NCBI GenBank assembly: GCA_030433355.1
Contig: JAUIMG010000004.1
Coordinates: 76,260-140,259 of the forward strand
Direction: 5' to 3'
Length of the DNA stretch: 64,000 bases
DNA from: Bacteroidia bacterium
GTDB taxonomy: Bacteria; Bacteroidota; Bacteroidia; Flavobacteriales_E; Vicingaceae
Position 1 is the stretch's first letter, and the number at the start of each line of letters is the position of its first letter. A program made the position numbers and the translations under genes. Below, piece after piece: positions 7,994 to 48,508 of the stretch. The notes below the pieces were generated by a model, which made no database searches, was not told where the DNA came from, and saw only the letters and a list, made by a program, of their open reading frames with translations.

Positions 7994-8746
7994 TTAAATA
8001 AAGGCGATTAAATCATTTTCAATCCAACCGCTATTGCCATTCGGTAAAGATACTTCTGTCCATCCTTCTGCAGAAGACTTTACTTTTACTTTTGTGCCTT
8101 CATGCAATACAAATAATTTAGAACTACCTTCACTTGGAGAGCTATTAATATTTACAGTAGGCTCTATAATAATTGCAAAATCAACACTTTTAAGAATGGC
8201 TTGGTGACGAAAAGCCATAAACCAGAATAGGACAGCTAAAAACAAATTGATAATTCCAAAATAGAAGCCAAGCTTTTTTAAGGAAATGCCATTACTTAAT
8301 AAGTAGGTGGATAAGCCAATTATAAAAAAAATAAAAAGTAAAATGCTGCCATTACTCCATGTTTTCAAAGAAAATAAGTTAAGCAAACTTTTCCACCAAC
8401 GATAAATGAATAGTTCTGGAATTTGATCAATCTTATCGATTGTTTTAGCGTTGGCAATTTCAAGGTTGTGCTTAGCATCCTCCATAGAAGGGTTAATCTT
8501 TATAGCCTTCTCATAATGAAGAATAGCCAATGCTAAGTCGTTATTTTTAAAGTATGCATTTGCTAAATTGTAATGCAAGTCTTCCGATAGGTAATTGCTG
8601 TCGAGAAGAGTAGTATAGATTTGTATGCTTTTGTTGTACTCTCCTTTTTTGTAATTACTTGCAGCAGAGTCTAACATACTTTCACTACTAGCAAATAGTC
8701 CAACATTGATTAAAGAAAGAAATAATATGGGGATAAATCTTCTCAT
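7994..8746 (-). CDS. batE: BatE-like TPR / SH3-type domain protein
   Basis: Signal peptide, TPR repeats, TM helices and a C-terminal SH3-like segment ([15 protein letters not shown]). It is the last gene of the Bat operon. Confidence 0.6.
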
Positions 8747-10539
8747 TTTAATACACTTTCAACCTCACTTATAATATCTATCGATTTTTGGTATATACTT
8801 TCAGCAGAATCAGCAGACTGCGGGGCAAATCTTGCCATTTCAGAAGAATGAATTACTTCTTTAAGATTGTTTATGGTATTAGAATCTATCTCTGATTTAG
8901 ATAAAGATTCAACTATTTTATCAATAGAAATCTCCGCTTTACTCAAATTATAGTAGTCTTGAAAGTAATTGTATAATGCATTGGATATTTCCTCAAAGAA
9001 AGCACTTAATTCTCCTTTATCTAAGAGTTTTTTGGCATTTCTAAGTTTTTGTTTGGCTTTGCTATTCGCTTTTGATTTTCTTAATCCAACTTGGTCTTTC
9101 GATTTCTCTTTAATTCTTTTCGAAATTAAATAAATACCTAAAAGAAGAAAGAGCAGGGATAGAACAACTAGGTAATAAGCTAAAGAACCAAAGAACTGAT
9201 GATCTGCTTTAATTAGATTTATGTTCGAAAGGTGGATATACCTTATGTCATTGTCTAAAATTTCAATCTCATTTTTTCTACTTCTCCCACTTAAAACAAC
9301 AGACTCTTCTTCTGCACCTTTTTCCACTTCTATAGATATTGGTTCTGTTTTAATTGTTTTATAGCTTTTTGTCGCTAAGTCGAAGTAAGAAAAACTTAAA
9401 GGGTCAATTTTAAAACTCCCTGAATGTCTTGGTATTACTAAGTAATTGAATTCTTTACTTCCTTTACTTCCGCTAAATGATGTCTTAAAGTTGTTTTTTG
9501 TTTCTGGATCGTAAACTTCAAAGTCGGGAGGGAAATTAATTTTTGGTGCTCCAATTAAGGGAAGGTTTCCATTGCCTTTTAATACAACTTTAAAATCTAT
9601 AGCTTCATTTGACTTTACACTGTTTTTTGAGGCAATTAGTGAAAAATCAAATTGGCCAACAGCACCACTAAAGTCAGCAGGTTTTCCTTGTTTGGGTAAA
9701 GGTTTTATCTCAATAGGTATAGGACTACTTTTAGTGATGACTTCTTTTCTCTCATAAGAACCAAACATAGATTCAAACATGCTTCTTGCTCTTCTGCTTC
9801 TTACTTGTACCGTAATTTTCATAGATAGCGGATCTATTTCGAGCTTGCCCGATCTTTGCGGGTAGAGTACTGTTTGCTGCAATTCTGCTACTTGATAGGT
9901 TTCTCCATCAATATATTCTGTTGATAATTCAATTTGATCGTATACAGATCGTAAATCTTGCGACCAAAAGCCATTCAATGCAGGTAGGCTTTCTAAATTT
10001 ATTCCTGCTAGAGATAATTTGGAGTATAACTTATAGGTAACCGTAATTTTTTCGCCTACATAGGCCGATTTCTTATCTACAAAAGATTTAATAAATACAT
10101 AATCACTTAGTTCTTCTCCTTGTTCTTTTCTTTCATTTTGCCTTTGTTTTTGAGCATTTGAGCCATTAGGGTTTTTGTCAACTACTTCAATAGAAATTGG
10201 ATCTGTTTTCTGAACTTTTCCATTGACATTAATTTCTGCCGGAGGAATGCTATACTTACCTGTTTTAGTAGAAACTAGGATATAACTTATGGTGTAGGAT
10301 TGTGTTCTATTTCCATTAATAATTTGTACGCTACTCGATTGATTTGGCCCTGATAATACACCAAATGTTCCAAAGTCAGGAGGAGTGAAATTTCCACCAC
10401 CAGCATTGATGGTAAAGGTTACTTGAAACCTCTGACCAAGCTCTACTACGCTATGGCTACTTTTGGCTGTAAAATTTACTGCAGCGGAGTAGCTTAGCTG
10501 AGATAAAAGAAAGAAGAATATCATTAAAAGTCTTCTCAT
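8743..10539 (-). CDS. batD: BatD-like oxygen-tolerance protein
   Basis: 598 aa with a signal peptide, a large extracytoplasmic domain and a late TM helix. Its position between BatC and BatE matches the canonical operon order. Confidence 0.7.
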   Translation of the reverse strand: MRRLLMIFFFLLSQLSYSAAVNFTAKSSHSVVELGQRFQVTFTINAGGGNFTPPDFGTFGVLSGPNQSSSVQIINGNRTQSYTISYILVSTKTGKYSIPPAEINVNGKVQKTDPISIEVVDKNPNGSNAQKQRQNERKEQGEELSDYVFIKSFVDKKSAYVGEKITVTYKLYSKLSLAGINLESLPALNGFWSQDLRSVYDQIELSTEYIDGETYQVAELQQTVLYPQRSGKLEIDPLSMKITVQVRSRRARSMFESMFGSYERKEVITKSSPIPIEIKPLPKQGKPADFSGAVGQFDFSLIASKNSVKSNEAIDFKVVLKGNGNLPLIGAPKINFPPDFEVYDPETKNNFKTSFSGSKGSKEFNYLVIPRHSGSFKIDPLSFSYFDLATKSYKTIKTEPISIEVEKGAEEESVVLSGRSRKNEIEILDNDIRYIHLSNINLIKADHQFFGSLAYYLVVLSLLFLLLGIYLISKRIKEKSKDQVGLRKSKANSKAKQKLRNAKKLLDKGELSAFFEEISNALYNYFQDYYNLSKAEISIDKIVESLSKSEIDSNTINNLKEVIHSSEMARFAPQSADSAESIYQKSIDIISEVESVLK

Positions 10540-35120: not shown

Positions 35121-35434
35121 ATTGCTTATAGCCTCACAGCATTTGAAATAGAAGCAGCATGAGGTAATTCTTTTCCATGTGGTAGATAAAAAGCAAGATT
35201 AGATTTTGAATTTGAAAACCGCCCTTACCGCTTTATAGACTTAGAAAGTGGGGAAGAGGTGAAGCTAAAGCCTGTAGAAGTGAAGGAACACTAGCAAGAG
35301 CAGATGGAAAAACAGATGGCCGCCCTAAAGCTGCGCTGCGGACAGTATGGCATTGGCTTGGTAGAGGCCGATATGAATCAAGGTTTTCACTAAATCTAAA
35401 TGCCTTTTTTGAATAAAAAGAAGATTTGTATTAA
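35121..35434 (+). pseudogene. Decayed duplicate of the 3' end of the DUF58 gene (31662-31977)
   Basis: My hand alignment found about 36 differences over about 280 aligned nt. There is a 1-nt deletion near 35195. In-frame stops at 35292-35294 (TAG replacing TAC) and 35391-35393 (TAA replacing CAA). Confidence 0.85.
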
Positions 35435-35886
35435 ACTACTCTCTCTGCTTCTCTTTTAATTGCTGCATTTCGCTCTCCTAAAAAGCGTTTCATGTAGTTT
35501 TTTAGAATGACTGCATTGAAGAGTTTTCCTAAAATTCCAAAAGGAGATTCAAAATGGAAATGATCTACCATGCTTGTAACCCCATTTACTTCGGTGAATA
35601 GATGTTCGTGTTTTATAGATTTGAAAATTCCTTTCACCATTTCATCAGTAAATGAATGCGGAGCATTCATGGCCGTAATTTTAGTGGTGAGTTGCTGTTT
35701 AATACCAAAATGAACTGCCTCCCAGGTAACGGTTTCTCCTAATCCAATTAAACCACTTGTTCTGCCCGCAATGGCTTTTTCTTTCGTTTTAGATGCTGCT
35801 TCTTGATGAAAATCAATACTGCGAGACAAATCGAATATGACTGGAATAGGTGCTTTGATTTTAGTGGTGATGTGAATTAGGGGCAT
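35431..35886 (-). CDS. SRPBCC (START/Bet v1-like) family protein
   Basis: 151 aa. The pattern PLIHITTKIKAPIPVIFDLSRSIDFH...ETVTWEAVHFGIKQ is typical of small SRPBCC proteins conserved in flavobacteria-like genomes, as far as I recall. Confidence 0.7.
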   Translation of the reverse strand: MPLIHITTKIKAPIPVIFDLSRSIDFHQEAASKTKEKAIAGRTSGLIGLGETVTWEAVHFGIKQQLTTKITAMNAPHSFTDEMVKGIFKSIKHEHLFTEVNGVTSMVDHFHFESPFGILGKLFNAVILKNYMKRFLGERNAAIKREAERVV

Positions 35887-36327
35887 TTACTTTGCTAATA
35901 AATCATTCGGATCAACAACAGGTAAAATAAAATTAGATAAAGCAGTTCCTTGAAATCGAGTCATTAAGATGCCACGAGAAGTTGAGTAGGTGATAGATCC
36001 AAGTGCATTTCCTAATCCTGAGCTTACTAATTCTTGTCCATCTTCTTTTGCAATCAGTTCGTTTAAGTTGTCAACAGAAAACCAATAGATGAAATGAAAC
36101 TTACCCACTGCTTCTTTTTGGTCTGTGCTTTCAGTTTCTACTGAAATACGAAAGTTGGTTTTTACTAACTTCTCTTGTAAGTTATGTCCCATTTCAAAAT
36201 CAACATCAAACTTGAAGTTGGTCACTTTGTTATTATCATGTTCCTCAGGACAATCTATTGCACCACTTAATATGGAAAAATGAAGCATCTTAATTTTTTC
36301 AGGAATTAGTTTACCAAAATCTTTCAT
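35887..36327 (-). CDS. Hypothetical protein, candidate SecB-like chaperone of a TAC module
   Basis: 146 aa. An aligned-by-eye beta-beta-beta-beta-alpha pattern and the C-terminal stretch LGNALGSITYSTSRGILMTRFQGTALSNFILPVVDPNDLL resemble E. coli SecB [41 protein letters not shown]. The start overlaps the antitoxin stop (TAATG). Confidence 0.4.
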   Translation of the reverse strand: MKDFGKLIPEKIKMLHFSILSGAIDCPEEHDNNKVTNFKFDVDFEMGHNLQEKLVKTNFRISVETESTDQKEAVGKFHFIYWFSVDNLNELIAKEDGQELVSSGLGNALGSITYSTSRGILMTRFQGTALSNFILPVVDPNDLLAK

Positions 36328-36809
36328 TAGGCAATTTGTCTTTTTGAATTAGCACTTTTCGAATCATAGGAATGTTCCATTTCTCTAACTTGAGTAATTT
36401 CTTGAACTCTCGAATCACTTCTTACAGAAATGGTAGAAGAGAAGTTATTGCTTGCAACTACTTTCATTATTGCATCAGGCGTTTTGAATGGTTTATTCTC
36501 AGTTAATCCTGAGACATAAGCGTATTGATGTAACTCTCTTTTCAAAAGCTCTGATTTACTTTCCAATTCAAAATGAGGTATAAGATCTAGCCTAAGAAGA
36601 ATAGAAACAATTTTTGAATAACTAAAATTTATATCTCCTGAGTTTAAAATTTGAGACATTCTTCCTGCGCTAATGTCTAAATACTTTGCCATGTCTTTTT
36701 GCTTGAAGCTTCTAGCTTCCATATATCGAACAATGGCATCGTATATTTTACCGTTTAATTCTTCTACCCAGTATCCTGGTTCAGAAATTACTTGTTCTCT
36801 TGTTATCAT
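36327..36809 (-). CDS. XRE-family HTH antitoxin (HigA-like) with a C-terminal extension of about 75 aa
   Basis: HTH segment FKQKDMAKYLDISAGRMSQILN. 4-nt overlap (ATGA) with the upstream toxin-like gene. Confidence 0.65.
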   Translation of the reverse strand: MITREQVISEPGYWVEELNGKIYDAIVRYMEARSFKQKDMAKYLDISAGRMSQILNSGDINFSYSKIVSILLRLDLIPHFELESKSELLKRELHQYAYVSGLTENKPFKTPDAIMKVVASNNFSSTISVRSDSRVQEITQVREMEHSYDSKSANSKRQIA

Positions 36810-37204
36810 AGCTTATGATTTTCGTTATAATAATCTATTATAATATTCTTTATTCTGTCGATATCTTGCTGTTGGCTTCCTTTTAAACCTCCTCCAACAA
36901 TTACTCTGCCTTTAGGATCTTGAAATAAATAAATTCTTATTTCGTTTTTCTTGGCTTCATACATTTTGCATGGCAGCCTATCGTCTTTTATTGTTCTAAA
37001 CTTGGCTTCAGGTAAGCGAATCGAGTTACAGCTGTGTTCAATAATTTTAAATGCGGATAAGAGAGATTTTGTGAGGTTTCCATCTTTTTCAATTTTAGCA
37101 TTAAACTGTTGCAATAGATTTTTATCGTTTTTGCAGAGCTCAAAAACCTTGATTTTGGTTTTCGGGCTGACTAGTTCCGACAATATTAACGAATAATTTC
37201 CCAA
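36806..37204 (-). CDS. HigB/Gp49-like (RelE/ParE superfamily) toxin
   Basis: 132 aa. The C-terminal core KMYEAKKNEIRIYLFQDPKGRVIVGGGLKGSQQQDIDRIKNII fits the phage Gp49/HigB pattern (..yElR...yRi.yf....ivll.g..K). Toxin-first gene order, as in higBA. Confidence 0.55.
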   Translation of the reverse strand: MGNYSLILSELVSPKTKIKVFELCKNDKNLLQQFNAKIEKDGNLTKSLLSAFKIIEHSCNSIRLPEAKFRTIKDDRLPCKMYEAKKNEIRIYLFQDPKGRVIVGGGLKGSQQQDIDRIKNIIIDYYNENHKL

Positions 37205-37267: not shown

Positions 37268-38398
37268 TTAAACAGCTGATTTTATTGCACTGTTCAATTT
37301 CGCGACAGGCTTTTTAAAAACATTTACCATTCGCTCAGATGTTTCAATCAAAAAATCAATCATTTTAGGCCAATCTTCTTTTTCATAAATAGAAACTCCT
37401 TGCATTTCAAATTTTATCCTAGAGGAAACTTTATCATTCATTCGTTCCCAAACTAGTTTACCATTAAAATCATTTTCAATTGCATCTTTTTTAGCTTCTA
37501 AAAAATCAAAACATTTTTTATTCTCCAATTGAGCCCCTCTGTTAATATAAATTTCCGCTCTTGTATACGTTCTAGTACCAACTATATTTAGGTTTATACC
37601 GCTCATGCCAATCCCTATTCCTATCCAATTGTCTTTAGAAGGAGAGATATTAGAAAAGAGATTGTTTTTCTGATTACTTGCTTTTAGAAACTCAGCCCAA
37701 AAGTCTAAACGAACCTGATATCTATGCTTTAAGTTTTCTTGAACAGTTATTTCTTCTTGAGCTTTTGATGCCATGCTTATGGTATAATCTTGAGCATCTA
37801 CCACAGGGAGTATTTGGTCTAAGTTCAAAAAAAGTTTATCTTCTAATTTATAAGGAGTGACTTTAAAACATTGAATTCGAATTTGAAAATTCATTAGCCA
37901 TAGTACCGTAGAGGTTACTTCTTTTCTAAACTTAGCAGCAATAAGAATAATACGCTGTTTTGAACCTTCGTTAATGAGTACTTCACTATAATCTTCTTTA
38001 CCTAGAAACTCTGCCAAGAGGGTTTCTGCATCTTTACCTTTATTTTGAGCGTTCAAATAATCTTGAAATATTCTTTTAATGTCCTCTTTTGATAATGTAC
38101 TGCAATAGGAAGCATACTTTAGTGCTTGCCAAGTAACATCTTTACCTGAATCGTCTAATTTATTTTCAATTATAACTAGGTTTCCTTGTTTGTCTAGTGC
38201 TAATAAATCAAGTCTTTCTCTTGTTTCTTGAAATCCATCAAACTCTTTTTGAATGATTAGAAACTCTTCATCTGCAAGGCATGTTGGATCATTTGCAATC
38301 CATTCTTGCAAATGCTCTCTTTCTTTAAAGCCTAATTCAGAAAAAGTACATCTCTCTAATTTCTCAATAATATTATTATCCTGATTTATTCGATACAT
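37268..38398 (-). CDS. PD-(D/E)xK nuclease-like N-terminal domain fused to a DUF4268-like C-terminal domain
   Basis: RLDLLALDKQGNLVIIENK supplies a D...ExK motif at residues about 63-80. The C-terminal half resembles DUF4268 as I remember it. Confidence 0.5.
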   Translation of the reverse strand: MYRINQDNNIIEKLERCTFSELGFKEREHLQEWIANDPTCLADEEFLIIQKEFDGFQETRERLDLLALDKQGNLVIIENKLDDSGKDVTWQALKYASYCSTLSKEDIKRIFQDYLNAQNKGKDAETLLAEFLGKEDYSEVLINEGSKQRIILIAAKFRKEVTSTVLWLMNFQIRIQCFKVTPYKLEDKLFLNLDQILPVVDAQDYTISMASKAQEEITVQENLKHRYQVRLDFWAEFLKASNQKNNLFSNISPSKDNWIGIGIGMSGINLNIVGTRTYTRAEIYINRGAQLENKKCFDFLEAKKDAIENDFNGKLVWERMNDKVSSRIKFEMQGVSIYEKEDWPKMIDFLIETSERMVNVFKKPVAKLNSAIKSAV

Positions 38399-38423: not shown

Positions 38424-38672
38424 CTATGAATTCCTTAATCTAACTAGGTTCGGTTCCCTAAACTCAAATAAATGAGCATAGTTCTTCCCTGCATGTGTGT
38501 TTGGGTGAGTTCTTAATCGTATTTGCTTTGCATTTGCAAAGCCAACATCCTTTTTATAGTAGAGCCTTCTATTGGTAATTTCATTACTAATTTCTTCTAA
38601 AGTAGCTGTTCTGTTTTCTTTGCTTAAAAGAACTACTGCTATTGCTTCGTGTAATTTTAAAATACGTTCCAT
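38424..38672 (-). CDS. Small winged-helix (HARE-HTH-like) protein
   Basis: 82 aa. LHEAIAVVLLSKENRTATLEEISNEI...LFEFREPNLVRLR resembles the HARE-HTH/Mrr_N type wHTH. Weak call made by eye. Confidence 0.35.
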   Translation of the reverse strand: MERILKLHEAIAVVLLSKENRTATLEEISNEITNRRLYYKKDVGFANAKQIRLRTHPNTHAGKNYAHLFEFREPNLVRLRNS

Positions 38673-38688
38673 TTTCTATTTCTAAAAA

Positions 38689-39189
38689 CTAACCCAAAAT
38701 CAACTGCAATACCATAGCTGCTGCGGCTACCAATATACTTAACCATGCGATGTATTCATTTCTCTTTGCTCTAGCTTTTGTTTTTGGGTAGTCATCAATT
38801 ATATTTTTCTTTAACTCAATATCGAGTTCTAAGGCTTTTCTCTCAATTTTATCTTTTTCTGCTTTTTCTGTATGGGCTTCTCTTGCTCTTTCCATCTGAC
38901 CGTCCCAATAAAACTTCATGCCTCCCTGTTGCATGAAATCAAGAAGAAGACCTGTGCCTTCAACCATCCAATTATTATCTTCTGAGTGAGTAACTCTAAT
39001 AACTTCTTTGGGTTGATTCTCTTCAATTATTCTTAAAAGATGATTTACTTGATCGAAATTTTTCTTCACTAAGAATGCATCCAAACTAATCTTATCTGTA
39101 AACGCAATATGGTTATGCTGCTTTAAAAGGAACTTAAATAATAAATCTGCTTCTTGCGACTGGCCTTTTGTTAATTGAAAAGAGTTCAT
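38689..39189 (-). CDS. Hypothetical tail-anchored membrane protein
   Basis: 166 aa with a soluble N-terminal domain, a charged helical stretch (EKAEKDKIERKALELDIELKK), and a single C-terminal TM helix YIAWLSILVAAAAMVLQLILG. Confidence 0.45.
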   Translation of the reverse strand: MNSFQLTKGQSQEADLLFKFLLKQHNHIAFTDKISLDAFLVKKNFDQVNHLLRIIEENQPKEVIRVTHSEDNNWMVEGTGLLLDFMQQGGMKFYWDGQMERAREAHTEKAEKDKIERKALELDIELKKNIIDDYPKTKARAKRNEYIAWLSILVAAAAMVLQLILG

Positions 39190-39193
39190 TTTT

Positions 39194-40003
39194 CTATGCT
39201 TTTAATGGCTCATTATTTTCATCTAATTGAGAAGTTTTCTTTGAATATTTATCTATTTGAATCAGATAATTAAACAAGAAACCAGGAATATATGGATGTT
39301 TATAACCACATGCTTTGCATATTTTATCGTCATTAACCTTTTCATTCTTTTTTAAGAAATCAGAGAATGCGGGATAAATTTTAGTGGATTGCATTAGAGC
39401 CAACCTTTTTGAAAAGAAAAATTTTTGGTCAGAAGTTAAAGTTGAATCTTCAATTGTTTCATATAAATTTATCCAATCTCCAAGTATTCCAAATATTTGA
39501 TAAAAGTGAACAGCTTTAGGATACCTCTCGGTATCGTGAGACTCTGCGTTATATCCTCCAGAAACGGTAGAATTTTGAACCGATTGGAAAATCCCTTCCA
39601 CCCCTAAATAATTTATATTATTTTTCTGAAAGTTAAATGAACTAATATCAATAGATAGTTGATTATATAAAGATTGTATGTTATTACGATCAATATCTTC
39701 CCTTCTTTCATCTCTCTCTCTATCTATTTGTCTCTGAATCTCTTTGTTTGCATTAACTTGTGCTAGAAAGGCAAAATAAACTAGAATAGAGCCAATTAAA
39801 CTTGTTATCGGCGCTGTTATTCCACCTATTGTATCTCCAATTTCATTTGGAGAACCAAAAGATAAGAAACCCACATCTTGTGTGAATAAATAAGGTGCAA
39901 TTATAACGAATAGGATTCCTAGAATTAATAAAAATAATGCACGTTTTGTGAAACTTATTTTAATCTCTTTTTTATCTTCCTTTTTATCTTCCTTTGGTTC
40001 CAT
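39194..40003 (-). CDS. Two-TM membrane protein, putative AbiC-like abortive-infection protein
   Basis: 269 aa. TM1 is ALFLLILGILFVIIAPYLF. The GDTIGGITAPITSLIGSILVYFAFLAQ segment resembles the Pfam putAbiC signature as I recall it. The C-terminal domain contains KICKACGYKHPY. Confidence 0.45.
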   Translation of the reverse strand: MEPKEDKKEDKKEIKISFTKRALFLLILGILFVIIAPYLFTQDVGFLSFGSPNEIGDTIGGITAPITSLIGSILVYFAFLAQVNANKEIQRQIDRERDERREDIDRNNIQSLYNQLSIDISSFNFQKNNINYLGVEGIFQSVQNSTVSGGYNAESHDTERYPKAVHFYQIFGILGDWINLYETIEDSTLTSDQKFFFSKRLALMQSTKIYPAFSDFLKKNEKVNDDKICKACGYKHPYIPGFLFNYLIQIDKYSKKTSQLDENNEPLKA

Positions 40004-40014
40004 AATACTACTTC

Positions 40015-41397
40015 CTATTTATACTCCCCCTCCCCCTCAGCAGCTACTCCCAACTCAACCTCCTCCATCTTATCATAAGCACCTTTTACCGAGACCTGAC
40101 CATTCATCAACATCGGCAACAACCAATCGCGAAGAGTGGAAAGTTGTTGGTTTTGAATTGAGTTTGATAGAATATTTTCTATTGTGGGTTTGAGAAGGGT
40201 TGAGAATTTTTTCAGAATTTCATTTTTTGGTTTTATAACTACAATTGAAGAAAAATCTCCTTTATTCATATTCGCGAATGTATTTCCTGTTTTAGCTTTT
40301 GCAAATTTGAAGTAGTCTTTGAGGTAGAAATACAAGAAATATTCATTTTCCTTATTCTCACAAACAACAGTGTTTAGTTGTTGGTTGGTTTGTGAATTTT
40401 CTGTTGCAAAAGCAACAAGCCCAGGAGAGGCTATGCAAGTAACACAGATTGCACCGTTCGGAATAAATTTATTTTTTTGTGTACTTGCTCCTAGTTCAGT
40501 AAGGCTTAATTCTGTTGAAGTTATGTGCATATTTCCTCTAACATCACCAATACAGATAAATGGTATATCACCATTAAAATTTTCATCAACTTTTGTAGAA
40601 GGGGTTTTACCTGTTATAATATTGGATTCTATTTCGCTTAATTCCTTCACCTCCCAACCCTCAGGTATCTCTCTCTTCAATTCTTCATTATAAACCATTT
40701 TGCCGCCAGAGGATTTGTAGGGCTTGCCAATCGAAGCCTTGGCGGAGTTTGGCTTGTTTTCGTCAGGAAACCCATCCTTCGCTGAAGCTTCGGATGGGAA
40801 CTCAAACTGCACAAACCAATAATCATAAATCAGTTTGGCCATACCTTCTAACTCCGCATTGATTTTGTTGTTCAGCTCTATTTTTTTGTTAATTGCATAA
40901 AGAAAATCTCCTATTTTCTTTTGTTCATCATAAGGAGGTAGGATTAAATCTAAATAGGAAAAAATTTGCTCATTAAGACTCGCTCGCAAAGTCATGATAG
41001 CATTGTTATTCATGGTTTTTCTAAAAAGATCACTCCTTAAGTAGAAAGCCATGAATTTATGATATGTAATATCCTTCTGAGTTGGTCTAAGTCTTTTTAG
41101 GAATCCACTATAAGAGGCCACTTCATAATTCCTAACGGCAACAGAGCTCATTCCTAATTCGTCGAGTGTTTCACTTGTTCTCGTCAAAAAAATATCACCT
41201 TCCAAAATAGAATACTTGCATTTTTCAACCTCAGAAATATCCATTAAATCAGGTAAATCCTCTGGCAAAAAGTGATCTTTAAATACTGTGCTAAAAGATA
41301 AAAATGGAGAACCATGTCCTGCTTGTTCAGGTTTGGATGAAATCCCTGAACTCATTTCATACAAATCAGAAAACTTATAAGTCACAAGTTTATACAT
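40015..41397 (-). CDS. hsdS: Type I restriction-modification specificity subunit
   Basis: Two target-recognition domains separated by conserved helices (LPPYDEQKKIGDFL, KLIYDYWFVQFEFP, LRDWLLPMLMNGQV). Confidence 0.9.
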   Translation of the reverse strand: MYKLVTYKFSDLYEMSSGISSKPEQAGHGSPFLSFSTVFKDHFLPEDLPDLMDISEVEKCKYSILEGDIFLTRTSETLDELGMSSVAVRNYEVASYSGFLKRLRPTQKDITYHKFMAFYLRSDLFRKTMNNNAIMTLRASLNEQIFSYLDLILPPYDEQKKIGDFLYAINKKIELNNKINAELEGMAKLIYDYWFVQFEFPSEASAKDGFPDENKPNSAKASIGKPYKSSGGKMVYNEELKREIPEGWEVKELSEIESNIITGKTPSTKVDENFNGDIPFICIGDVRGNMHITSTELSLTELGASTQKNKFIPNGAICVTCIASPGLVAFATENSQTNQQLNTVVCENKENEYFLYFYLKDYFKFAKAKTGNTFANMNKGDFSSIVVIKPKNEILKKFSTLLKPTIENILSNSIQNQQLSTLRDWLLPMLMNGQVSVKGAYDKMEEVELGVAAEGEGEYK

Positions 41398-43015
41398 GCT
41401 TCAATCCCTCCAAATTCTTTTCAATCTCTGTCTCTAACTTTTTCCCTTCCGCAAACAACTCACATAAATTGCTTTTAAAGCCGTTTAGCTTTAATTCAAA
41501 TTCTTCTGGTGTAATTTCGATGTATTCAATTTTTACTTCAAAGTATTGCCCTGCACTTAAGCTGAAGTTTTTGGCTTTTATGTCTTCGTAAGAAACCACT
41601 ACCGAAAAGTCATCTTCGGCTCTTTTGGCATTAAACACCTCAATAATGCGGTCTTCTTCCGCCGCAGCAAGCAGGGTCTTTTGGTTTTTACCATCTTTTA
41701 CTTTGCTGCCCAAATTAGAGGCATCTACCAATACCACATCGCCTTTGTTGGCTTTGTCTAAAAATAAAATAGAAACGTTGGTACCTGTGGTGGCAAAAAT
41801 ATTAGAGGGCATGCTTACCACTCCGGCCAACATTTTATCTTTTACCAACTTTTCGCGTATTTTCTTGTCAATACCGCTTTGGGCCGTAATAAAACCCGTA
41901 GGCACCACTATGGCAGCTTTGCCATTGGGTTTTAAAGAAGCCATAATGTGTTGAATAAACAACAAATAAATGGCCATGCTGTCTTTTTTACTTTTAGGCA
42001 CATTGGGCACGCCGGCAAAAAAACGTTCTTGGTTTTGTTTGTTGTCCAAATCATCGCGGTAATCCGAAAAATCTAATTTAAAGGGTGGGTTAGAAACCAC
42101 ATAGTTGAATTTGGCCAAACTGCCGTCTTTTTCTTTATGATAGGGCGAGAGTATGGTATTGCCCTTTACCACATTCGGCAGGGAATGCACCAAATCGTTT
42201 AAAATTAAATTCAAACGCAAAAGAGAAGAAGACTTTTGAGAAATATCTTGAGTGTAAATGGTGCATTGGTCTTCGCCAATTTGGTGCGCCAAATTCATAA
42301 GCAAAGTACCAGAGCCAGCAGAAGGATCGTAACAGGTTACATTTTTCACTTCTTTATCTACTAGGCAACGCGCCATAATTTTAGAAACAGCATGTGGGGT
42401 AAAGTATTCCGCATATTTTCCACCACTATCTGAATTGTAATCTTTAATCAGGTATTCAAAAATGGCAGAATAAAAATCAAACTTTTCTTCGAAAATATGC
42501 TCAAAGCTAAAATCTACCAATTTGTTAATGATGGCTTTGCAAAAGGCATCTTTATCGTCTACAATGTACCTACTCAATTCATCAAAAAGAGTCAGCTTTT
42601 CTCCTGTGTAGGTCATTACGGAGAATAAATCGCTGTTTACTTTGGCAATATCCAATAAGGTGGCATCAAAGATTTGAGAAAAGTTCTTTTCGTTTTGCCG
42701 CGCAAACAAATTGCTTATAAAATGATCTCGTTGAATTACAGCGGTAGATTCACCCAATTGAGCGACTAGCATTTCAAATTCATCATCGCTATAGCCATCA
42801 ATGGTTTCTTGCCATTTATCTCCTGCAGCCTTTAGTTTAGCATCTATTTCCTTGGTATTGTGTATGAATTTATCATTTAATAGTTTGTACAAGAAAACCT
42901 GCGTAATCACTTTAAATTCATTGCCATCATTACCTAAACCATAGGTAGCACAAACACTTTTTAACTCATCAATGAGTGCTCTTGTTTTCTGCTCAAAATC
43001 TTTCGTTCTATCCAT
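41390..43015 (-). CDS. hsdM: Type I restriction-modification DNA methyltransferase subunit
   Basis: SAM motif DPSAGSGTLL and catalytic motif VVSNPPFK. 8-nt overlap with hsdS. Confidence 0.9.
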   Translation of the reverse strand: MDRTKDFEQKTRALIDELKSVCATYGLGNDGNEFKVITQVFLYKLLNDKFIHNTKEIDAKLKAAGDKWQETIDGYSDDEFEMLVAQLGESTAVIQRDHFISNLFARQNEKNFSQIFDATLLDIAKVNSDLFSVMTYTGEKLTLFDELSRYIVDDKDAFCKAIINKLVDFSFEHIFEEKFDFYSAIFEYLIKDYNSDSGGKYAEYFTPHAVSKIMARCLVDKEVKNVTCYDPSAGSGTLLMNLAHQIGEDQCTIYTQDISQKSSSLLRLNLILNDLVHSLPNVVKGNTILSPYHKEKDGSLAKFNYVVSNPPFKLDFSDYRDDLDNKQNQERFFAGVPNVPKSKKDSMAIYLLFIQHIMASLKPNGKAAIVVPTGFITAQSGIDKKIREKLVKDKMLAGVVSMPSNIFATTGTNVSILFLDKANKGDVVLVDASNLGSKVKDGKNQKTLLAAAEEDRIIEVFNAKRAEDDFSVVVSYEDIKAKNFSLSAGQYFEVKIEYIEITPEEFELKLNGFKSNLCELFAEGKKLETEIEKNLEGLKHV

Positions 43016-43033: not shown

Positions 43034-46000
43034 TTAGGCAATGTTGCCATAGTATTCATTCAAATATTCTTTTACCAATAATTGGTTGATGCGCTTGTAT
43101 TCGGGCATGCCCAATTGCATTTCACCCTTAAATTGTTGAATCACTAATCGCATCATCATTTTTTCTACGTAATTCTCATTGTCCAATTGGTGGGTGTTTT
43201 TTTCTATCTCTTCATCCACTCCTTCTTTCAACTGCATCAATACTTCCGCTAGTTTTCTGTCTTTATCGGTAATGGGGTCTTTTTCCATCAGGCGTTTATG
43301 CAAGCGAGCATATTTTTCGTCTTTGCTGTACTTTTCTTTTAGCAATTGGTTTTTTCGTTCCAACTCTTTGGCTTGGTTATAAATCACTTCCAGCTCTTCT
43401 ATGTTCTCGCTCATTTCATCCTTGCTTACTTCGCTCAGATTTTTTTTCTTAAACAGCCGTTCTAGTTCTTCTCTTAAGGAAATCAATTCTGGATCTCTTG
43501 GATCAAAGTTTCCTCCCAAGGCTTCTCTTGTTTTTTGTAGCATGTTTTTCAACTGGTCGGCCAATACCATTTCTTCTTCTCTCACTTTCGTGAAAGCGAA
43601 AAGAATGTCTTCTAAAGCGATATTGAGTAAATTTTGATTTTCTATATCGTTTTCTAAAGCTTCTCTAGTATTAATTAAAGCCAAGCGGTTATTGGCCTCT
43701 CTTGAAAGCACGCCTAATTTCTGAAAGTCTAATTTCTCTAAAAGGTCATAGTGTCCAAGCGTTCTAATCAAGTTGTATAAACTTCTCGCATCATTCAAGG
43801 CCTTGGTCACCTTCAGCATTTCTTTACGGTCGTTTATTTGAGATACTTGCTGTTGAAATACTTCCGCATTTTTGGTGTTGTAATCAAACAATACATCCTC
43901 AATGTTTTCTATTTCTTGCTTTATTTCTTCGGGGCTTTTAAATAGATCGGTGTAGTATTCCATTTCATCACCCAATTGATCTTGCAGTTCGGCAAAATAA
44001 TCGCGGTTGGTTTTGTCAAACTCACTTTGTATGTCGGCAAAGTCAACCACATAACCGTAGCGGTGATTTTTATAAGTTCGGTTAACTCGAGTTAAGGCCT
44101 GCAGTAAATTATGAGCTTTAATTACTCTAGTGATGTAGAGTTTTTTCAATCGTTTGGCATCAAATCCAGTGAGCAGCATGTTAAAAACAAAAAGGAAATC
44201 AATTTTCCCCTCTTTAAAATCTTCCACCAATTCTTTGCGGTCGTCTTTAGAGCCTACATCATGCAAAATAACTTGAGCTGTTTTTACTTTTCTAGCTTCG
44301 TTTTGCTGCTTTCCATAGCTTTCATTATTCTCAGCAGCCATCGCCAGTTCAGGTTCAGCTTGGGCATATTTTTCATTAAAAATTTGCTGCATCTCTTTCG
44401 CTTGGTCGGAAGAGTCGCAAATTACCATTCCGCCAACGGTATCATCTCCACTAGAGAGTCTAAACTTTTCTAAATCATTAATAACATACTCTAAAAGTGG
44501 TTCCACAAATTTGGGATGTGCATACACCTTCTTTTTATTGCCCGAGCCTCTAATCAATTTGATTTCATCTAAGGCTTCTTTCAACTTTAGCTTGTAAGAA
44601 GTTTCGATTTCTTCTCTGATCAAACGCAGGGTGTAGCCATCCTTAATGGATTTGTTGTAGTAGTATTTATGAATGTATTCTCCGAATAAATCTCTGGAGT
44701 TGTATTCATTCCCCAAAAGTGGAGTACCTGTTAATCCGATTTTAATGGCATTCGAATCTGACTCTTTTAAGTTCGCTAAAAAACTTCCTTTGGGATTGTA
44801 ACTGCGATGCACCTCATCTAAAAAATAGACGCGTTGAATATCTAAGTTGTAATCCGTGTTTTTTACAACCTCAGGGTCATCTTTAAATTTCTGAATGTTT
44901 ACAACCGTAATTTCTGCTTTCCCACTATCGTTATGAATAACAGCAGTAGACTTAATTTCTCGAGCAAATTCTTCTTTTGAATTTACATTATGTACCAATA
45001 AACCACGGCTTCTAAACTCAATACTTGCTTGTATCAACAAATCCAAACGGTCTACAATGAAATAGAACTTTGGGATGATGTTTTTAGATTGATAGTAATC
45101 GGTGAGGTATTTTACATTGTAATAAGCTAGGGCAGTTTTACCGCTTCCTTGCGTATGCCAAATGATGCCTTTTTTGATGCCTTCTTCCAACTTCTGCTCA
45201 ATGGCTTTGGTTGCAAATAACTGAGGATAGCGCATGATGTGCTTTTCCAAATGATTTACTCCTTGCACATAAGCAATGGCATATTGCAGAATAAAAGCCA
45301 AGCGATCTTTTTGAAAAAGCGAAGTGCAAATTCTATTCGTTGGTGTATTCCAAGCGGTATTTACTGCATACTCTTCCGCATTTCGAATGCTAACTAAATT
45401 ATTATCCTTTAAAACTCTGAGCTCTTCCCCCTCATCTAAAGCCGAAAGAATTTCATCTTCGGTAAACTCAACTTCCTCTCTAAAGTAATTGAAAGCATGT
45501 TGGCCATAAGAAGGAGCTGCATAAAATGCACCTTGCAAAGGCTCGGGGTCGCTATCGTCATATTCCATGTTGTTGGAAAAAACCATCAGCTGTGTAATAT
45601 TCACGAAGTTTCTAAACTTCTTGTTTTGAAAACGACTTAAAATTCGCTTGCGCTCTGCTTGCACACCATCGAGGTTGTTTGGCTTTTTCACTTCAATAAA
45701 AGCCAAAGGCATTCCATTAATTAGAAGAATAATATCAGGTCGAAAATTATCGTCATCCTTTTGATAGGGCAGTTCAGTAACTACATGAAAAGCATTGTTT
45801 TCAAAGTTGTCAAAGTCAATCAACCGATTGCCTGAACGATTGGTCAGTTTTTGATAGAAAACTTTTCCTAAATCTTCATTTTCCAGACATAGGGAAATTT
45901 CATCATACAATCGACGAACTTCTTGCTTATTTAAATCTGGGTTAAGCTTTTGAATTTGAGCATTGAAAATATCAACGAATATATTGGTGTTGCTGTCCCA

Positions 46001-46093
46001 TTGGGCATCTTTCAGTGAAAGGTATTCAAAACCTAACCGCATTAGATGCAGTATAGTTGGGATTTTTACGCGAGAGTCTTCGTTGAATTTCAT
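43034..46093 (-). CDS. hsdR: Type I restriction enzyme endonuclease/helicase subunit
   Basis: 1019 aa with helicase motif I HTQGSGKT and motif II FLDEVHRS, plus an N-terminal nuclease region. Confidence 0.9.
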   Translation of the reverse strand: MKFNEDSRVKIPTILHLMRLGFEYLSLKDAQWDSNTNIFVDIFNAQIQKLNPDLNKQEVRRLYDEISLCLENEDLGKVFYQKLTNRSGNRLIDFDNFENNAFHVVTELPYQKDDDNFRPDIILLINGMPLAFIEVKKPNNLDGVQAERKRILSRFQNKKFRNFVNITQLMVFSNNMEYDDSDPEPLQGAFYAAPSYGQHAFNYFREEVEFTEDEILSALDEGEELRVLKDNNLVSIRNAEEYAVNTAWNTPTNRICTSLFQKDRLAFILQYAIAYVQGVNHLEKHIMRYPQLFATKAIEQKLEEGIKKGIIWHTQGSGKTALAYYNVKYLTDYYQSKNIIPKFYFIVDRLDLLIQASIEFRSRGLLVHNVNSKEEFAREIKSTAVIHNDSGKAEITVVNIQKFKDDPEVVKNTDYNLDIQRVYFLDEVHRSYNPKGSFLANLKESDSNAIKIGLTGTPLLGNEYNSRDLFGEYIHKYYYNKSIKDGYTLRLIREEIETSYKLKLKEALDEIKLIRGSGNKKKVYAHPKFVEPLLEYVINDLEKFRLSSGDDTVGGMVICDSSDQAKEMQQIFNEKYAQAEPELAMAAENNESYGKQQNEARKVKTAQVILHDVGSKDDRKELVEDFKEGKIDFLFVFNMLLTGFDAKRLKKLYITRVIKAHNLLQALTRVNRTYKNHRYGYVVDFADIQSEFDKTNRDYFAELQDQLGDEMEYYTDLFKSPEEIKQEIENIEDVLFDYNTKNAEVFQQQVSQINDRKEMLKVTKALNDARSLYNLIRTLGHYDLLEKLDFQKLGVLSREANNRLALINTREALENDIENQNLLNIALEDILFAFTKVREEEMVLADQLKNMLQKTREALGGNFDPRDPELISLREELERLFKKKNLSEVSKDEMSENIEELEVIYNQAKELERKNQLLKEKYSKDEKYARLHKRLMEKDPITDKDRKLAEVLMQLKEGVDEEIEKNTHQLDNENYVEKMMMRLVIQQFKGEMQLGMPEYKRINQLLVKEYLNEYYGNIA

Positions 46094-46159: not shown

Positions 46160-47209
46160 TTACGCAAGCGCTTCTTCTCCGTAGTTGATCAGTTTATCTA
46201 CAATGCTGTCTAATTGTTGGTCTACCTCGCTTTTGGAAACATAACTCAAGCCATCTTCTTTCAGTTTCAAGAGGTTCTCTTTAGAAGCATTGTCCATTTC
46301 GGCATCTGCGGTGAGCACTTCTGGTTCTAAGCGGTAGTAATCTGCTTTGTTGGCCGCACTAAGGGTATCAAAGATTTGCCGTAAATGGTAATGCACCGTT
46401 TGAGAACTGGCAGACATCATAATTTCTATGATGGGTTTGATCCAACCCACGGCGCCCCAATCTTTGGCTTTTTGGTAGTTGTATTGTTTGCTTTTGCTGC
46501 CAGTGCCAATAGAAACAATAAGCATGTCTTTGGCGGTTGGAAACTCACAAATGCCAGGGAATTTCATGGTCCGCACGGCAGAATAAGCCACCAAAGTGGG
46601 GTTGTTGACAAACACCCCACCATCAATTAGTGGGAATTCAGAACCCAATTCACTTTTTACCAAAGCGGTTTCAAAATAGGTGGGGGCGGCAGAAGTGGCT
46701 CTGGCTACTTCTTTTACCTTAAAGTTATAAATGGCATTATGGGCTTTGTGTTGTTTAAAAAAATGGGGTTTCCCATTTTTAATGTCGTAAGAACTAATGA
46801 TGCAGGGTTTGATTAGATCGGCCAACATCGTATCGCCAAAGGTTTCGGCCAAGGCTTTTTCTATGGCTGCGGCATCGTATTTTTCGTCCAATACGCAATT
46901 GCCGCTTCTTATTCTTTGTCGCAGAGTGGTGTCAAAAATGGCATCTCCTTTTTCCAAATAAAGCTTTACGGCTTCTTCAGCGGTAAGTAGAGGTCGGCCA
47001 TCGGCATTGGGCATCAAATAAGAAAGGCTTAAGATACCACCGGTGCTGGTGCCGGCCATAAAATCAAAATAATCGGCTAGGCGCTTATTGGGATTTTGGG
47101 TTTTTTCTTGGATCTTCTTTTCGATTTGCATCAGCGTAATTCCGGGCAGTATGCCTCTAATGCCACCACCATCAATGGAGAGGATTCTTACTTTTTTCTT
47201 GGGTTTCAT
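46160..47209 (-). CDS. Patatin-like phospholipase
   Basis: Oxyanion loop DGGGIRG, nucleophile motif GTSTGG (GxSxG), and catalytic Asp motif DGGVFVNNP. Confidence 0.85.
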   Translation of the reverse strand: MKPKKKVRILSIDGGGIRGILPGITLMQIEKKIQEKTQNPNKRLADYFDFMAGTSTGGILSLSYLMPNADGRPLLTAEEAVKLYLEKGDAIFDTTLRQRIRSGNCVLDEKYDAAAIEKALAETFGDTMLADLIKPCIISSYDIKNGKPHFFKQHKAHNAIYNFKVKEVARATSAAPTYFETALVKSELGSEFPLIDGGVFVNNPTLVAYSAVRTMKFPGICEFPTAKDMLIVSIGTGSKSKQYNYQKAKDWGAVGWIKPIIEIMMSASSQTVHYHLRQIFDTLSAANKADYYRLEPEVLTADAEMDNASKENLLKLKEDGLSYVSKSEVDQQLDSIVDKLINYGEEALA

Positions 47210-47431: not shown

Positions 47432-48508
47432 TTACTTGTAGTTCCCTAATTTCTTAATTCGCTTAGCAATGCTTTCCAGTTCGGAGGCATCAAAAATGGG
47501 AGGAAGAAATGTTAAATACTTATTGAGTTCCTTCAGGTTTTTCACAGTTACGTAATCAAATTTCTCATGGGGTTTATTCTTAATCATTACCACTAGGTTT
47601 CTTACGGGAATTGTTCTTTTTCCCCAATGATGTATGAGTTTTAGTATGGAATTTTTCTTAGAATTAAGCATAGTAAAAAGGGCATATCCAGTTCTTTGCA
47701 CTTGTTGTACTGGAGAATAAGCATTTACATTAGCAATAGTAGTTTCACTCCAATTTTTGGTTTCTATTGCAAAAACACCTGCTCTGCAAAGCAATACATG
47801 ATCAATTTGTATGCTAAAGATTCTGTCTTTATCTTTTTTGTTGTAAATAGGAGGGTCGAATTTTACAGAGAAATCATTGAATAAGATGTATTCGTCCGAA
47901 AGCTTTTTTATTTCTTTCTGCACTAGGTTTTCTCCTTTAGCACCTTCAATTAAAGGGCCTAAATCATCTAAAATTGCTTTGGTAAACTGCAGTCTTTTAA
48001 GTTTTGGTTTAAGCCTATTGCGGATTATCTTCTCCCTGTTCTTTTCGAAGTAGTTAAACTTCTTTCTTCCTTTTAAGAACTGCCATTTTAAGTGTGCTAA
48101 GCTTAATGCTTTTAAGCTACTAAAACTCTTCTCCATAAGGTATATGTTAAAGCGGAGGAGGAGTGTGTAGCACCAATGGAAAAACTCTAAAAAATCATTT
48201 TTTATGTATTTCGATTCAAATACTGCCAGTCTTTTTCTTTTGGCTAGTAGTTTGCTTTCTACTTTCTCTTTTAAGCTACTACTTAAGTTTGCCATGCTTG
48301 TTTCAACTTTCTGAAGTTGGCTTTGCAGTTTAATGTATTCTTGGCAGTATTCCCTTTCCATCTCTTGCTGCAAGGTATTCAGGGTATGTGGGTATTTATC
48401 TTGAAATACTTCTATTTCTTGGATGGAGCTAAAATCATAAATCCCCTTCTTTAAAAGCGTTTCTTTTAATCTGCTTAAAGATTCTATTTGTCCGTAGACG
48501 ATGGCCAT
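47432..48508 (-). CDS. NERD domain protein with a long helical N-terminal region
   Basis: The C-terminal GAKGENLVQKEIKKL...IQIDHVLLCRAGVFAIETKNWS matches the NERD (nuclease-related domain) pattern. Confidence 0.7.
   Translation of the reverse strand: MAIVYGQIESLSRLKETLLKKGIYDFSSIQEIEVFQDKYPHTLNTLQQEMEREYCQEYIKLQSQLQKVETSMANLSSSLKEKVESKLLAKRKRLAVFESKYIKNDFLEFFHWCYTLLLRFNIYLMEKSFSSLKALSLAHLKWQFLKGRKKFNYFEKNREKIIRNRLKPKLKRLQFTKAILDDLGPLIEGAKGENLVQKEIKKLSDEYILFNDFSVKFDPPIYNKKDKDRIFSIQIDHVLLCRAGVFAIETKNWSETTIANVNAYSPVQQVQRTGYALFTMLNSKKNSILKLIHHWGKRTIPVRNLVVMIKNKPHEKFDYVTVKNLKELNKYLTFLPPIFDASELESIAKRIKKLGNYK

Follow-up and report, generated by a model that had tools for sequence, protein, structure and literature searches.

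The subject of this study is a group of three small genes from a Bacteroidia bacterium of the family Vicingaceae (NCBI GenBank assembly GCA_030433355.1, contig JAUIMG010000004.1). They lie directly behind hsdS, the specificity gene of a type I restriction-modification (R-M) operon, within a stretch of 64,000 nucleotides (positions 76,260 to 140,259 of the forward strand) that we call the window. We refer to their open reading frames (ORFs) of 269, 166 and 82 aa as A, B and C; coordinates are window positions, unless another locus is named. A first-pass annotation, made from the letters of the window, had described A, B and C as a same-strand trio behind hsdS with gaps of 11 nt (hsdS to A), 4 nt (A to B) and 16 nt (B to C). 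The sequence bears this out, and both peptides that the annotation quoted, GDTIGGITAPITSLIGSILVYFAFLAQ and KICKACGYKHPY, are present.

All three are real genes and not chance ORFs. A has 177 homologues and C has 38; B has five close homologues and gave 64 matches in an exhaustive profile search (E ≤ 1e-3), most of which are distant relatives. When compared with the sister genome described below, C shows strong conservation, the ratio of nonsynonymous to synonymous substitution rates (dN/dS) being 0.042/0.475, or about 0.09. There is no terminator-like site in the short gaps between hsdS, A, B and C, and the region as a whole has no excess of such sites (10, compared with 7.7 +/- 2.5 in shuffled sequence), so that co-transcription of hsdRMS with A, B and C is plausible. 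A scan for sigma-70 promoters gave site counts equal to the shuffled expectation, under a model that does not cover Bacteroidota promoters. Note that the gene run continues past C, since another gene on the same strand follows after 25 nt. Within the window, 11 minus-strand genes, from hsdR to an SRPBCC gene, are densely packed in this one run. Its GC content is 30-37%, compared with 41-43% in the flanking housekeeping genes, and gene A has the lowest GC of the locus (29.9%, and 20% at third codon positions).

The locus can be compared with that of the only sister genome available, a Vicingaceae metagenome-assembled genome whose locus we call L012. Between the two, hsdR, hsdM and the conserved pieces of hsdS share 89-91% DNA identity in blastn, up to window position 40031. 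Homology resumes at 38693, at the stop codon of B (38689-38691), and continues at 81% through C, the PDC-S11 candidate that follows it and the downstream genes. The amino acid identities are 95% for hsdR (88.7% at the DNA level), 97% for hsdM (91%), 90% for the PDC-S11 gene and 91% for C, which in L012 stands behind different cargo. The hsdS products, on the other hand, are 38% identical (L012 4793-6208), and only the central and C-terminal conserved regions of the gene align as DNA. This difference is a typical swap of target-recognition domains, which predicts a different specificity. The slot of A and B is filled in L012 (6217-7828) by 1.78 kb with a 135-aa ORF, which has no Pfam or PADLOC match, ahead of PDC-M04A (DUF3800, E = 2.7e-80) and PDC-M04B (E = 2.1e-68); all PADLOC family models were taken from PADLOC-DB 2.0.0. 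Because the same slot holds the PDC-M04 candidate in L012, A and B are exchangeable cargo. Furthermore, because L012 swaps A and B and keeps C, C is separated from the other two and the trio as a unit is refuted. A gain or loss of the trio as a whole was not borne out: L012 lacks A and B and has C, with the breakpoint at the stop codon of B. A and B make up an insert, located between hsdS and C, that has been exchanged horizontally; C is part of the backbone, and each of the three families has a distribution of its own.

The A family was represented by 98 loci in scans of metagenome and viral contigs, and 44 of these contain full-length relatives. When A, B, C and hsdS were compared with 119 loci by blastp, we were not able to find a homologue of B, C or hsdS at any of these 98. 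The same is true of hsd homologues at the 44 loci with full-length relatives, as searched by tblastn with the hsdR, hsdM and hsdS of the window. Clustering of all ORFs of the 98 loci showed that no cluster of neighbours recurs at the 44 with full-length relatives. The only locally recurrent neighbour, shared by the five related metagenome loci L023-L027, is a 313-aa gene (cluster c27) that immediately follows the A-family gene.

A search of 5.8 billion clustered proteins gave just five close relatives of B, and each is found in a different defence neighbourhood. In the first (L001-L004), an HSDR_N fragment and a C-terminal remnant of hsdS are followed by DUF4238, B, C and Mrr. In the second (L005), B lies between AlbA_2 and McrBC; in the third (L006-L008), between an unknown 615-aa gene and an M78 peptidase resembling CapP/RmrA; in the fourth (L009 and L010), between a defence dCTP deaminase (1e-100) and DUF433-PIN; and in the fifth (L011), B is followed by an 87-aa gene and an AbiLi-like ATPase. 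Defence genes recognised by PADLOC flank B in all five contexts. A is found in none of them, C in one, and hsd genes in one, as a remnant. In hhalign, A is not related to the genes found upstream of B elsewhere (DUF4238 and the 615-aa protein). In L001, the degraded type I R-M (8342-8794) lies directly upstream of DUF4238-B-C-Mrr and includes a 66-aa HSDR_N fragment, and an 80-aa ORF of this locus is 46% identical to the last 70 residues of the window hsdS.

For C, a one-genome-per-species scan with the alignment of the family gave 10 loci, and three look-ups of exact proteins gave more. The gene before C may be hsdR, hsdM, an Eco57I-type methylase, a Type ISP remnant, GmrSD, Vsr or a KAP NTPase, and an overlap of 4-8 nt between C and the stop codon of this gene is common. 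Of 14 independent contexts, about 10 have an R-M gene in the same-strand run as C, and eight contain hsd homologues. Among these 14 other contexts there is none with A and one with B; C is thus found without B in 13, the sister genome included. In two loci (L131 7321-12434 and L129 11047-12309) R-M operons that end in C adjoin genes of the integrase, primase and excisionase types, which suggests that these R-M-plus-C units sit on or beside integrative elements.

Our preferred reading, to which we give a probability of about 0.7, is that the segment is a cargo position in a type I R-M-anchored defence island and that A, B and C are three functionally independent orphan genes. The first-pass annotation had proposed the trio as one functional abortive-infection module and had itself named the co-occurrence of its homologues across genomes as one deciding point. 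Such co-occurrence was not found. In this alternative, one co-transcribed module backing the type I R-M would be made up of all three genes, or at least of A and B, with a membrane effector pair and a DNA-binding sensor or regulator. The tight spacing on one strand would be expected of such a module, and it would also fit that A and B were replaced as a block by a recognised two-gene candidate system in L012 and that B and C are adjacent again in L001. Nevertheless we regard it as unlikely: the 98 A-family loci are devoid of B and C, the five other contexts of B all lack A and four of them lack C, C lacks A in all of its other contexts and has B in just one of them, and the exchange breakpoint splits B from C exactly at the B stop codon.

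Another alternative would make B and C a two-gene unit, a tethered and a soluble winged helix, that travels with type I R-M, with A as an unrelated neighbour. It seems to us quite improbable, as the two genes are mostly found apart (C without B in 13 of 14 other contexts, B without C in four of five) and the two families are unrelated by hhalign. Its support is the order of B and C with a gap of 16-17 nt in both the window and L001-L004, each time downstream of hsd genes or their remnants, but this common block may reflect shared descent of the stretch.

Table 1. Genes and segments of the gene run, in window positions
Feature	Position	Strand	Description
hsdR	43034-46093	-	Type I restriction subunit, 1019-aa ORF; first gene of the conserved backbone
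hsdM	41390-43015	-	Type I methyltransferase subunit, 541-aa ORF; backbone gene
hsdS	40015-41397	-	Specificity subunit; Pfam Methylase_S, E = 9.6e-33
Gene A	39194-40003	-	269 aa; N-terminal hairpin of two transmembrane helices, C-terminal helical domain (predicted)
Gene B	38689-39189	-	166 aa; N-terminal winged helix, charged helix, C-terminal transmembrane segment (predicted)
Exchangeable cargo segment	38694-40030	-	Holds exactly A and B; from blastn against the sister locus L012
Gene C	38424-38672	-	82 aa; free-standing basic winged helix (predicted), conserved backbone
PDC-S11 candidate	37268-38398	-	376 aa, 25 nt behind C
Three small genes	35887-37204	-	132, 160 and 146 aa; overlapping or abutting
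SRPBCC gene	35431-35886	-	151 aa

The first-pass annotation had also made proposals on the individual proteins. None of the three was recognised there as part of a named system, and indeed no existing family model names A, B or C; profile searches against PDB sequences gave no relatives of the three families either. For A, two N-terminal transmembrane (TM) helices had been proposed, and hydropathy agrees: there are two hydrophobic segments, at about residues 22-43 and 59-84 in Kyte-Doolittle windows. The likeness of A to the putative phage abortive infection family putAbiC (PF16872) holds for the N-terminal two-TM module and fails for the C-terminal domain. Comparing the A family (51 sequences) with 11 PF16872 proteins in hhalign, we obtained a probability of 99.95% and an E-value of 2.9e-38 over 87 columns, covering A residues 17-104 only. 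Since the homology is confined to these residues, A is a domain-swap relative of putAbiC and not a full member. In library searches A has no significant Pfam, NCBIfam or PADLOC match, and PF16872 is not listed by hmmscan even at E ≤ 1; the sole library signal on A is phrog_8999 (function unknown), which matches residues 22-105 with E = 4e-5.

What A shares with putAbiC is the first TM helix, a short loop, a second TM helix with IGDTIGGITAP...G..LV..AL.AQ.(D/N)AN and the start of a charged helix. In the alignment of the A family, the motif IGDTIGGITAP...G..L..Q..AN in the second TM helix is invariant. The C-terminal domain of putAbiC, on the other hand, has about 250 residues, and in A it is replaced by a domain of about 165 residues that ends in CxxC-x3-H; the HH and GHYFRNLYR motifs of the PF16872 domain are missing from the A alignment. 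Near the C-terminus, the A family has a near-invariant C229-x2-C232-x3-H236-x3-P240. Across the family this segment (A residues 229-240, window 39194-39320) reads C-x2-C-G-x2-H-x3-P, also near-invariantly, with a weak signal for Pfam DUF4428 (E = 0.047) at this position, and the family member P0017 is without it. The CxxC-x3-H of A may be a zinc knuckle. There are Lys and Arg residues before the first TM helix and a highly charged stretch after the second, and because of these charges both termini of A are suggested to be cytoplasmic; a cytoplasmic C-terminus would fit a zinc-binding motif at this end. The matches of A in IMG/VR cover just the putAbiC-like N-terminus, and GenBank phages, searched by tblastn, have no match to either A or B.

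AbiC and AbiP form the lactococcal AbiC/P group. The comparison of the N-terminal motif of A covered 11 proteins annotated with PF16872. A resembles AbiC in that it is likewise a single polypeptide with two TM helices. For AbiC, a recent review describes two TM helices, no assigned mechanism and a reduced production of the phage major capsid protein (2026 review, PMC13064643). A literature search on PF16872 returned nothing. We infer that A is an AbiC-related, single-gene candidate for defence at the membrane. It would act alone: the cytoplasmic C-terminal domain, with its probably zinc-binding CxxC-x3-H, would sense a cue of infection, and the conserved IGDTIGGITAP hairpin that is common to putAbiC would be the part acting on the membrane.

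B had been described as a protein with a soluble N-terminal domain, a charged helix and a C-terminal TM anchor, and both the AlphaFold2 model and the hydropathy profile return the same layout. The sole hydrophobic window in Kyte-Doolittle analysis is formed by residues 147-166 of 166 and is preceded by KTKARAKRNE. The model has a pLDDT (predicted local distance difference test) of 81 overall and of about 90 over a winged helix at residues 8-78, which consists of the helices H8-23, H31-37 and H45-58 and the strands b28-30, b64-67 and b75-78; it is followed by one unbroken helix (residues 90-165) that includes the TM segment. Foldseek matched the model to winged-helix domains of MarR, PadR and kleisin proteins. 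Note that the Foldseek E-values for both B and C are weak (at least 0.007), and that the fold call is based on the consistency of the hit lists and on the H1-b1-H2-H3-b2-b3 topology. B carries DYPKTKARAKR before the anchor, and the family motif (D/E)(Y/F)PKTK.RA is conserved. The 64 proteins of the B superfamily, with about 140-170 aa, have the same architecture, which is kept in 31 aligned relatives, and scanning these 31 gave no consistent Pfam match. B itself has no significant match in Pfam, NCBIfam or PHROG, and in PADLOC only one to Csx1 (E = 0.006, 14 bits) that we took as chance; in IMG/VR the superfamily has one partial match, on a single contig. In summary, B is a predicted tail-anchored winged-helix protein of an unnamed family. 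A literature search on tail-anchored winged-helix defence proteins found nothing relevant.

The lactococcal Sie proteins are membrane-anchored superinfection-exclusion proteins of prophages. B is similar to them in being small and membrane-anchored, and two of the four distant relatives of B that were inspected lie beside phage genes. It differs in that it would be anchored by its C-terminus and would bear a cytoplasmic winged helix. The two relatives (P0184 and P0199; L127 920-3631 and L124 1-6474) are found beside a phage portal gene or small phage-like genes (DUF5675, DUF6712), which hints that part of the wider B family is carried on prophages. In our reading, the coiled stalk and the tail anchor of B would keep its cytoplasmic winged helix close to the membrane, on the inner face. 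There it would most likely bind nucleic acid or a phage protein, like an exclusion protein; alternatively, it could be a tethered regulator. For its expression, B would depend on the transcript of the defence gene before it, whatever that gene may be.

C had been thought to be a winged-helix protein of the HARE-HTH/Mrr_N type, HTH standing for helix-turn-helix. The AlphaFold2 model and Foldseek agree on the winged helix, and the more specific assignment fell away, as there is no Pfam match to these families at E ≤ 1. In hhalign, the C family and the L001 Mrr protein that carries Mrr_N align with a probability of 0.4%, in a single-sequence comparison that leaves distant membership possible. C has no hydrophobic TM segment in the Kyte-Doolittle analysis. 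Its model has a pLDDT of 92, with helices H7-16, H25-35, H48-55 and H60-64 and strands E22-24, E69-72 and E76-79, i.e. a winged helix that has one short helix more than usual (H48-55 and H60-64). The Foldseek matches are the winged-helix domains of forkhead, Cdt1, MCM8 and Fur proteins, with TM-scores of 0.5-0.66, and the best of them, forkhead, has an E-value of at least 0.02. The Pfam matches at E ≤ 1 are just Forkhead (0.0078, sub-threshold) and DIT1_PvcA. Across the 39 sequences of the C family, LKLHEAIAVVL is invariant. No significant match to C was found in Pfam, NCBIfam, PADLOC or PHROG, none at E ≤ 1 in PADLOC, and none in IMG/VR.

There are several known groups of DNA-binding proteins with which C can be compared. 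The controller (C) proteins of type II R-M systems have an Xre-type HTH, whereas the protein C described here has a predicted winged-helix fold. With HARE-HTH/Mrr_N and DpnI-type proteins it shares a winged helix and the association with R-M genes; it is free-standing, however, without fusion to a nuclease. Prokaryotic winged-helix domains fused to nucleases are documented readers of adenine methylation (PMC11037411). The regulators of the BrxR/CapW type, which combine a winged HTH with a WYL domain, are another parallel, since C is also a small basic protein with a DNA-binding fold that accompanies many defence and R-M operons. The BrxR family is described as accompanying diverse defence systems (PMC9122601). 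Unlike these regulators, C has no WYL or other ligand domain, consists of 82 aa and is located at the 3' end of the run, not upstream and divergent. We propose that C would be a small DNA-binding accessory of Bacteroidota R-M operons, often translationally coupled to the preceding gene, and most likely either a regulator of these operons or a reader of DNA state for them.

The locus of A, B and C is a defence island. The PDC-S11 gene behind C has a PADLOC match with E = 9.6e-159, a match to Pfam DUF4268 (E = 1.3e-35) and a NucS/PD-(D/E)XK-like N-terminus. As for the three small genes that come next (Table 1), a weak RelE/HI1419-like signal was obtained for the 132-aa gene, an HTH_37 domain for the 160-aa gene and a PADLOC match to PDC-M64C (E = 1.1e-29) for the 146-aa gene. 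All three are kept in L012, and together they probably form a candidate system of the PDC-M64 type. At the other end, directly upstream of hsdR, there is a 349-aa gene (46160-47209, minus strand) that is matched by the PADLOC models for the CBASS 'Effector Phospholipase' (E = 7.1e-69) and is called patatin-like because of this match. The ORF at 47432-48508 has no PADLOC match.

Defence genes have been sought inside type I R-M, BREX and DISARM loci; type I R-M operons often contain embedded genes, and PrrC, the classic example, is hardly ever found elsewhere (Payne et al., bioRxiv 10.1101/2024.01.29.577857). A and B resemble such embedded genes (PrrC and the PDC candidates) by their variable position in a run led by type I R-M, near PDC-S11 and the PDC-M64C match. 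They differ because A, B and C are placed behind hsdS, not between the hsd genes, and match no PDC or HEC model. An association with R-M such as that of PrrC is repeated for C alone. Hsd genes accompany C in eight independent contexts, B in one of five (as a remnant) and A, which shows no such association, in none of the 44 loci with full-length relatives.

Several observations weigh against the reading of A, B and C as independent members of a defence island. The adjacency of B and C recurs once, in L001, and again behind hsd remnants, and the sample of B contexts is small (five). A lineage-specific partnership of A and B is possible, because of the 4-nt gap between them and because they are exchanged as a block relative to one sister genome. 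As to defence, the 102 non-redundant neighbours of A-family genes are mostly housekeeping genes (ribosomal proteins, tRNA synthetases, metabolic enzymes), and only about one in ten is defence-like (AAA_21/AriA, PDC-M49A, HerA, PDC-S05, S06 and S23). Furthermore, two of the four distant B relatives inspected are stand-alone genes in housekeeping surroundings. Since the neighbours in the wider families are so often housekeeping genes, the case for a defence role of A and B comes mainly from their position. The mechanisms given for A, B and C are deduced from fold and charge distribution. These wider neighbourhoods, together with the lack of PADLOC matches, would also suit the idea that A and B are some other small membrane proteins and C an ordinary transcription factor, present by chance in a low-GC island and without any role in phage defence, but we consider this very unlikely given the PADLOC-recognised flanking genes in all five other contexts of close B relatives, the R-M or defence runs that contain C in nearly all of its contexts, the PDC-M04 candidate in the same slot of L012 and the membrane module that A has in common with the putAbiC family.

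We therefore return to the reading of A, B and C as independent genes in a cargo position. The domain-level guesses of the first-pass annotation are largely right, and its interpretation as one module fails on co-occurrence. The case is a caution on guilt by adjacency: the close packing of the genes behind hsdS had pointed to a three-gene system, and comparative context resolved it into a backbone gene and exchangeable cargo. The three families, all of which are missed by Pfam, NCBIfam and PADLOC, are worth following up. A combines an AbiC-type membrane module with a different, probably zinc-binding, domain in a family of at least 177 members, and this suggests that the two-TM hairpin is a membrane part that can be reused with different cytoplasmic domains.

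B, whose close relatives are confined to defence neighbourhoods, and C, which recurrently ends R-M operons in Bacteroidota, are the most worth testing. A more far-reaching interpretation, which we offer as doubtful and tentative, takes both together: C would be a dedicated R-M accessory in Bacteroidota, and B would belong to a new class of tail-anchored winged-helix proteins, one that captures incoming phage DNA or a phage protein. B would then act by itself at the inner membrane face, as an add-on that fits behind any defence gene. C, translationally coupled to the last R-M gene, might read DNA methylation or time restriction after entry into a new host. We know of no controller-like factor described for type I, IIG and ISP systems; if this interpretation is true, C would be such a controller-like element for them. 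If C does regulate or assist the R-M enzymes, type I systems would have an added layer of control.

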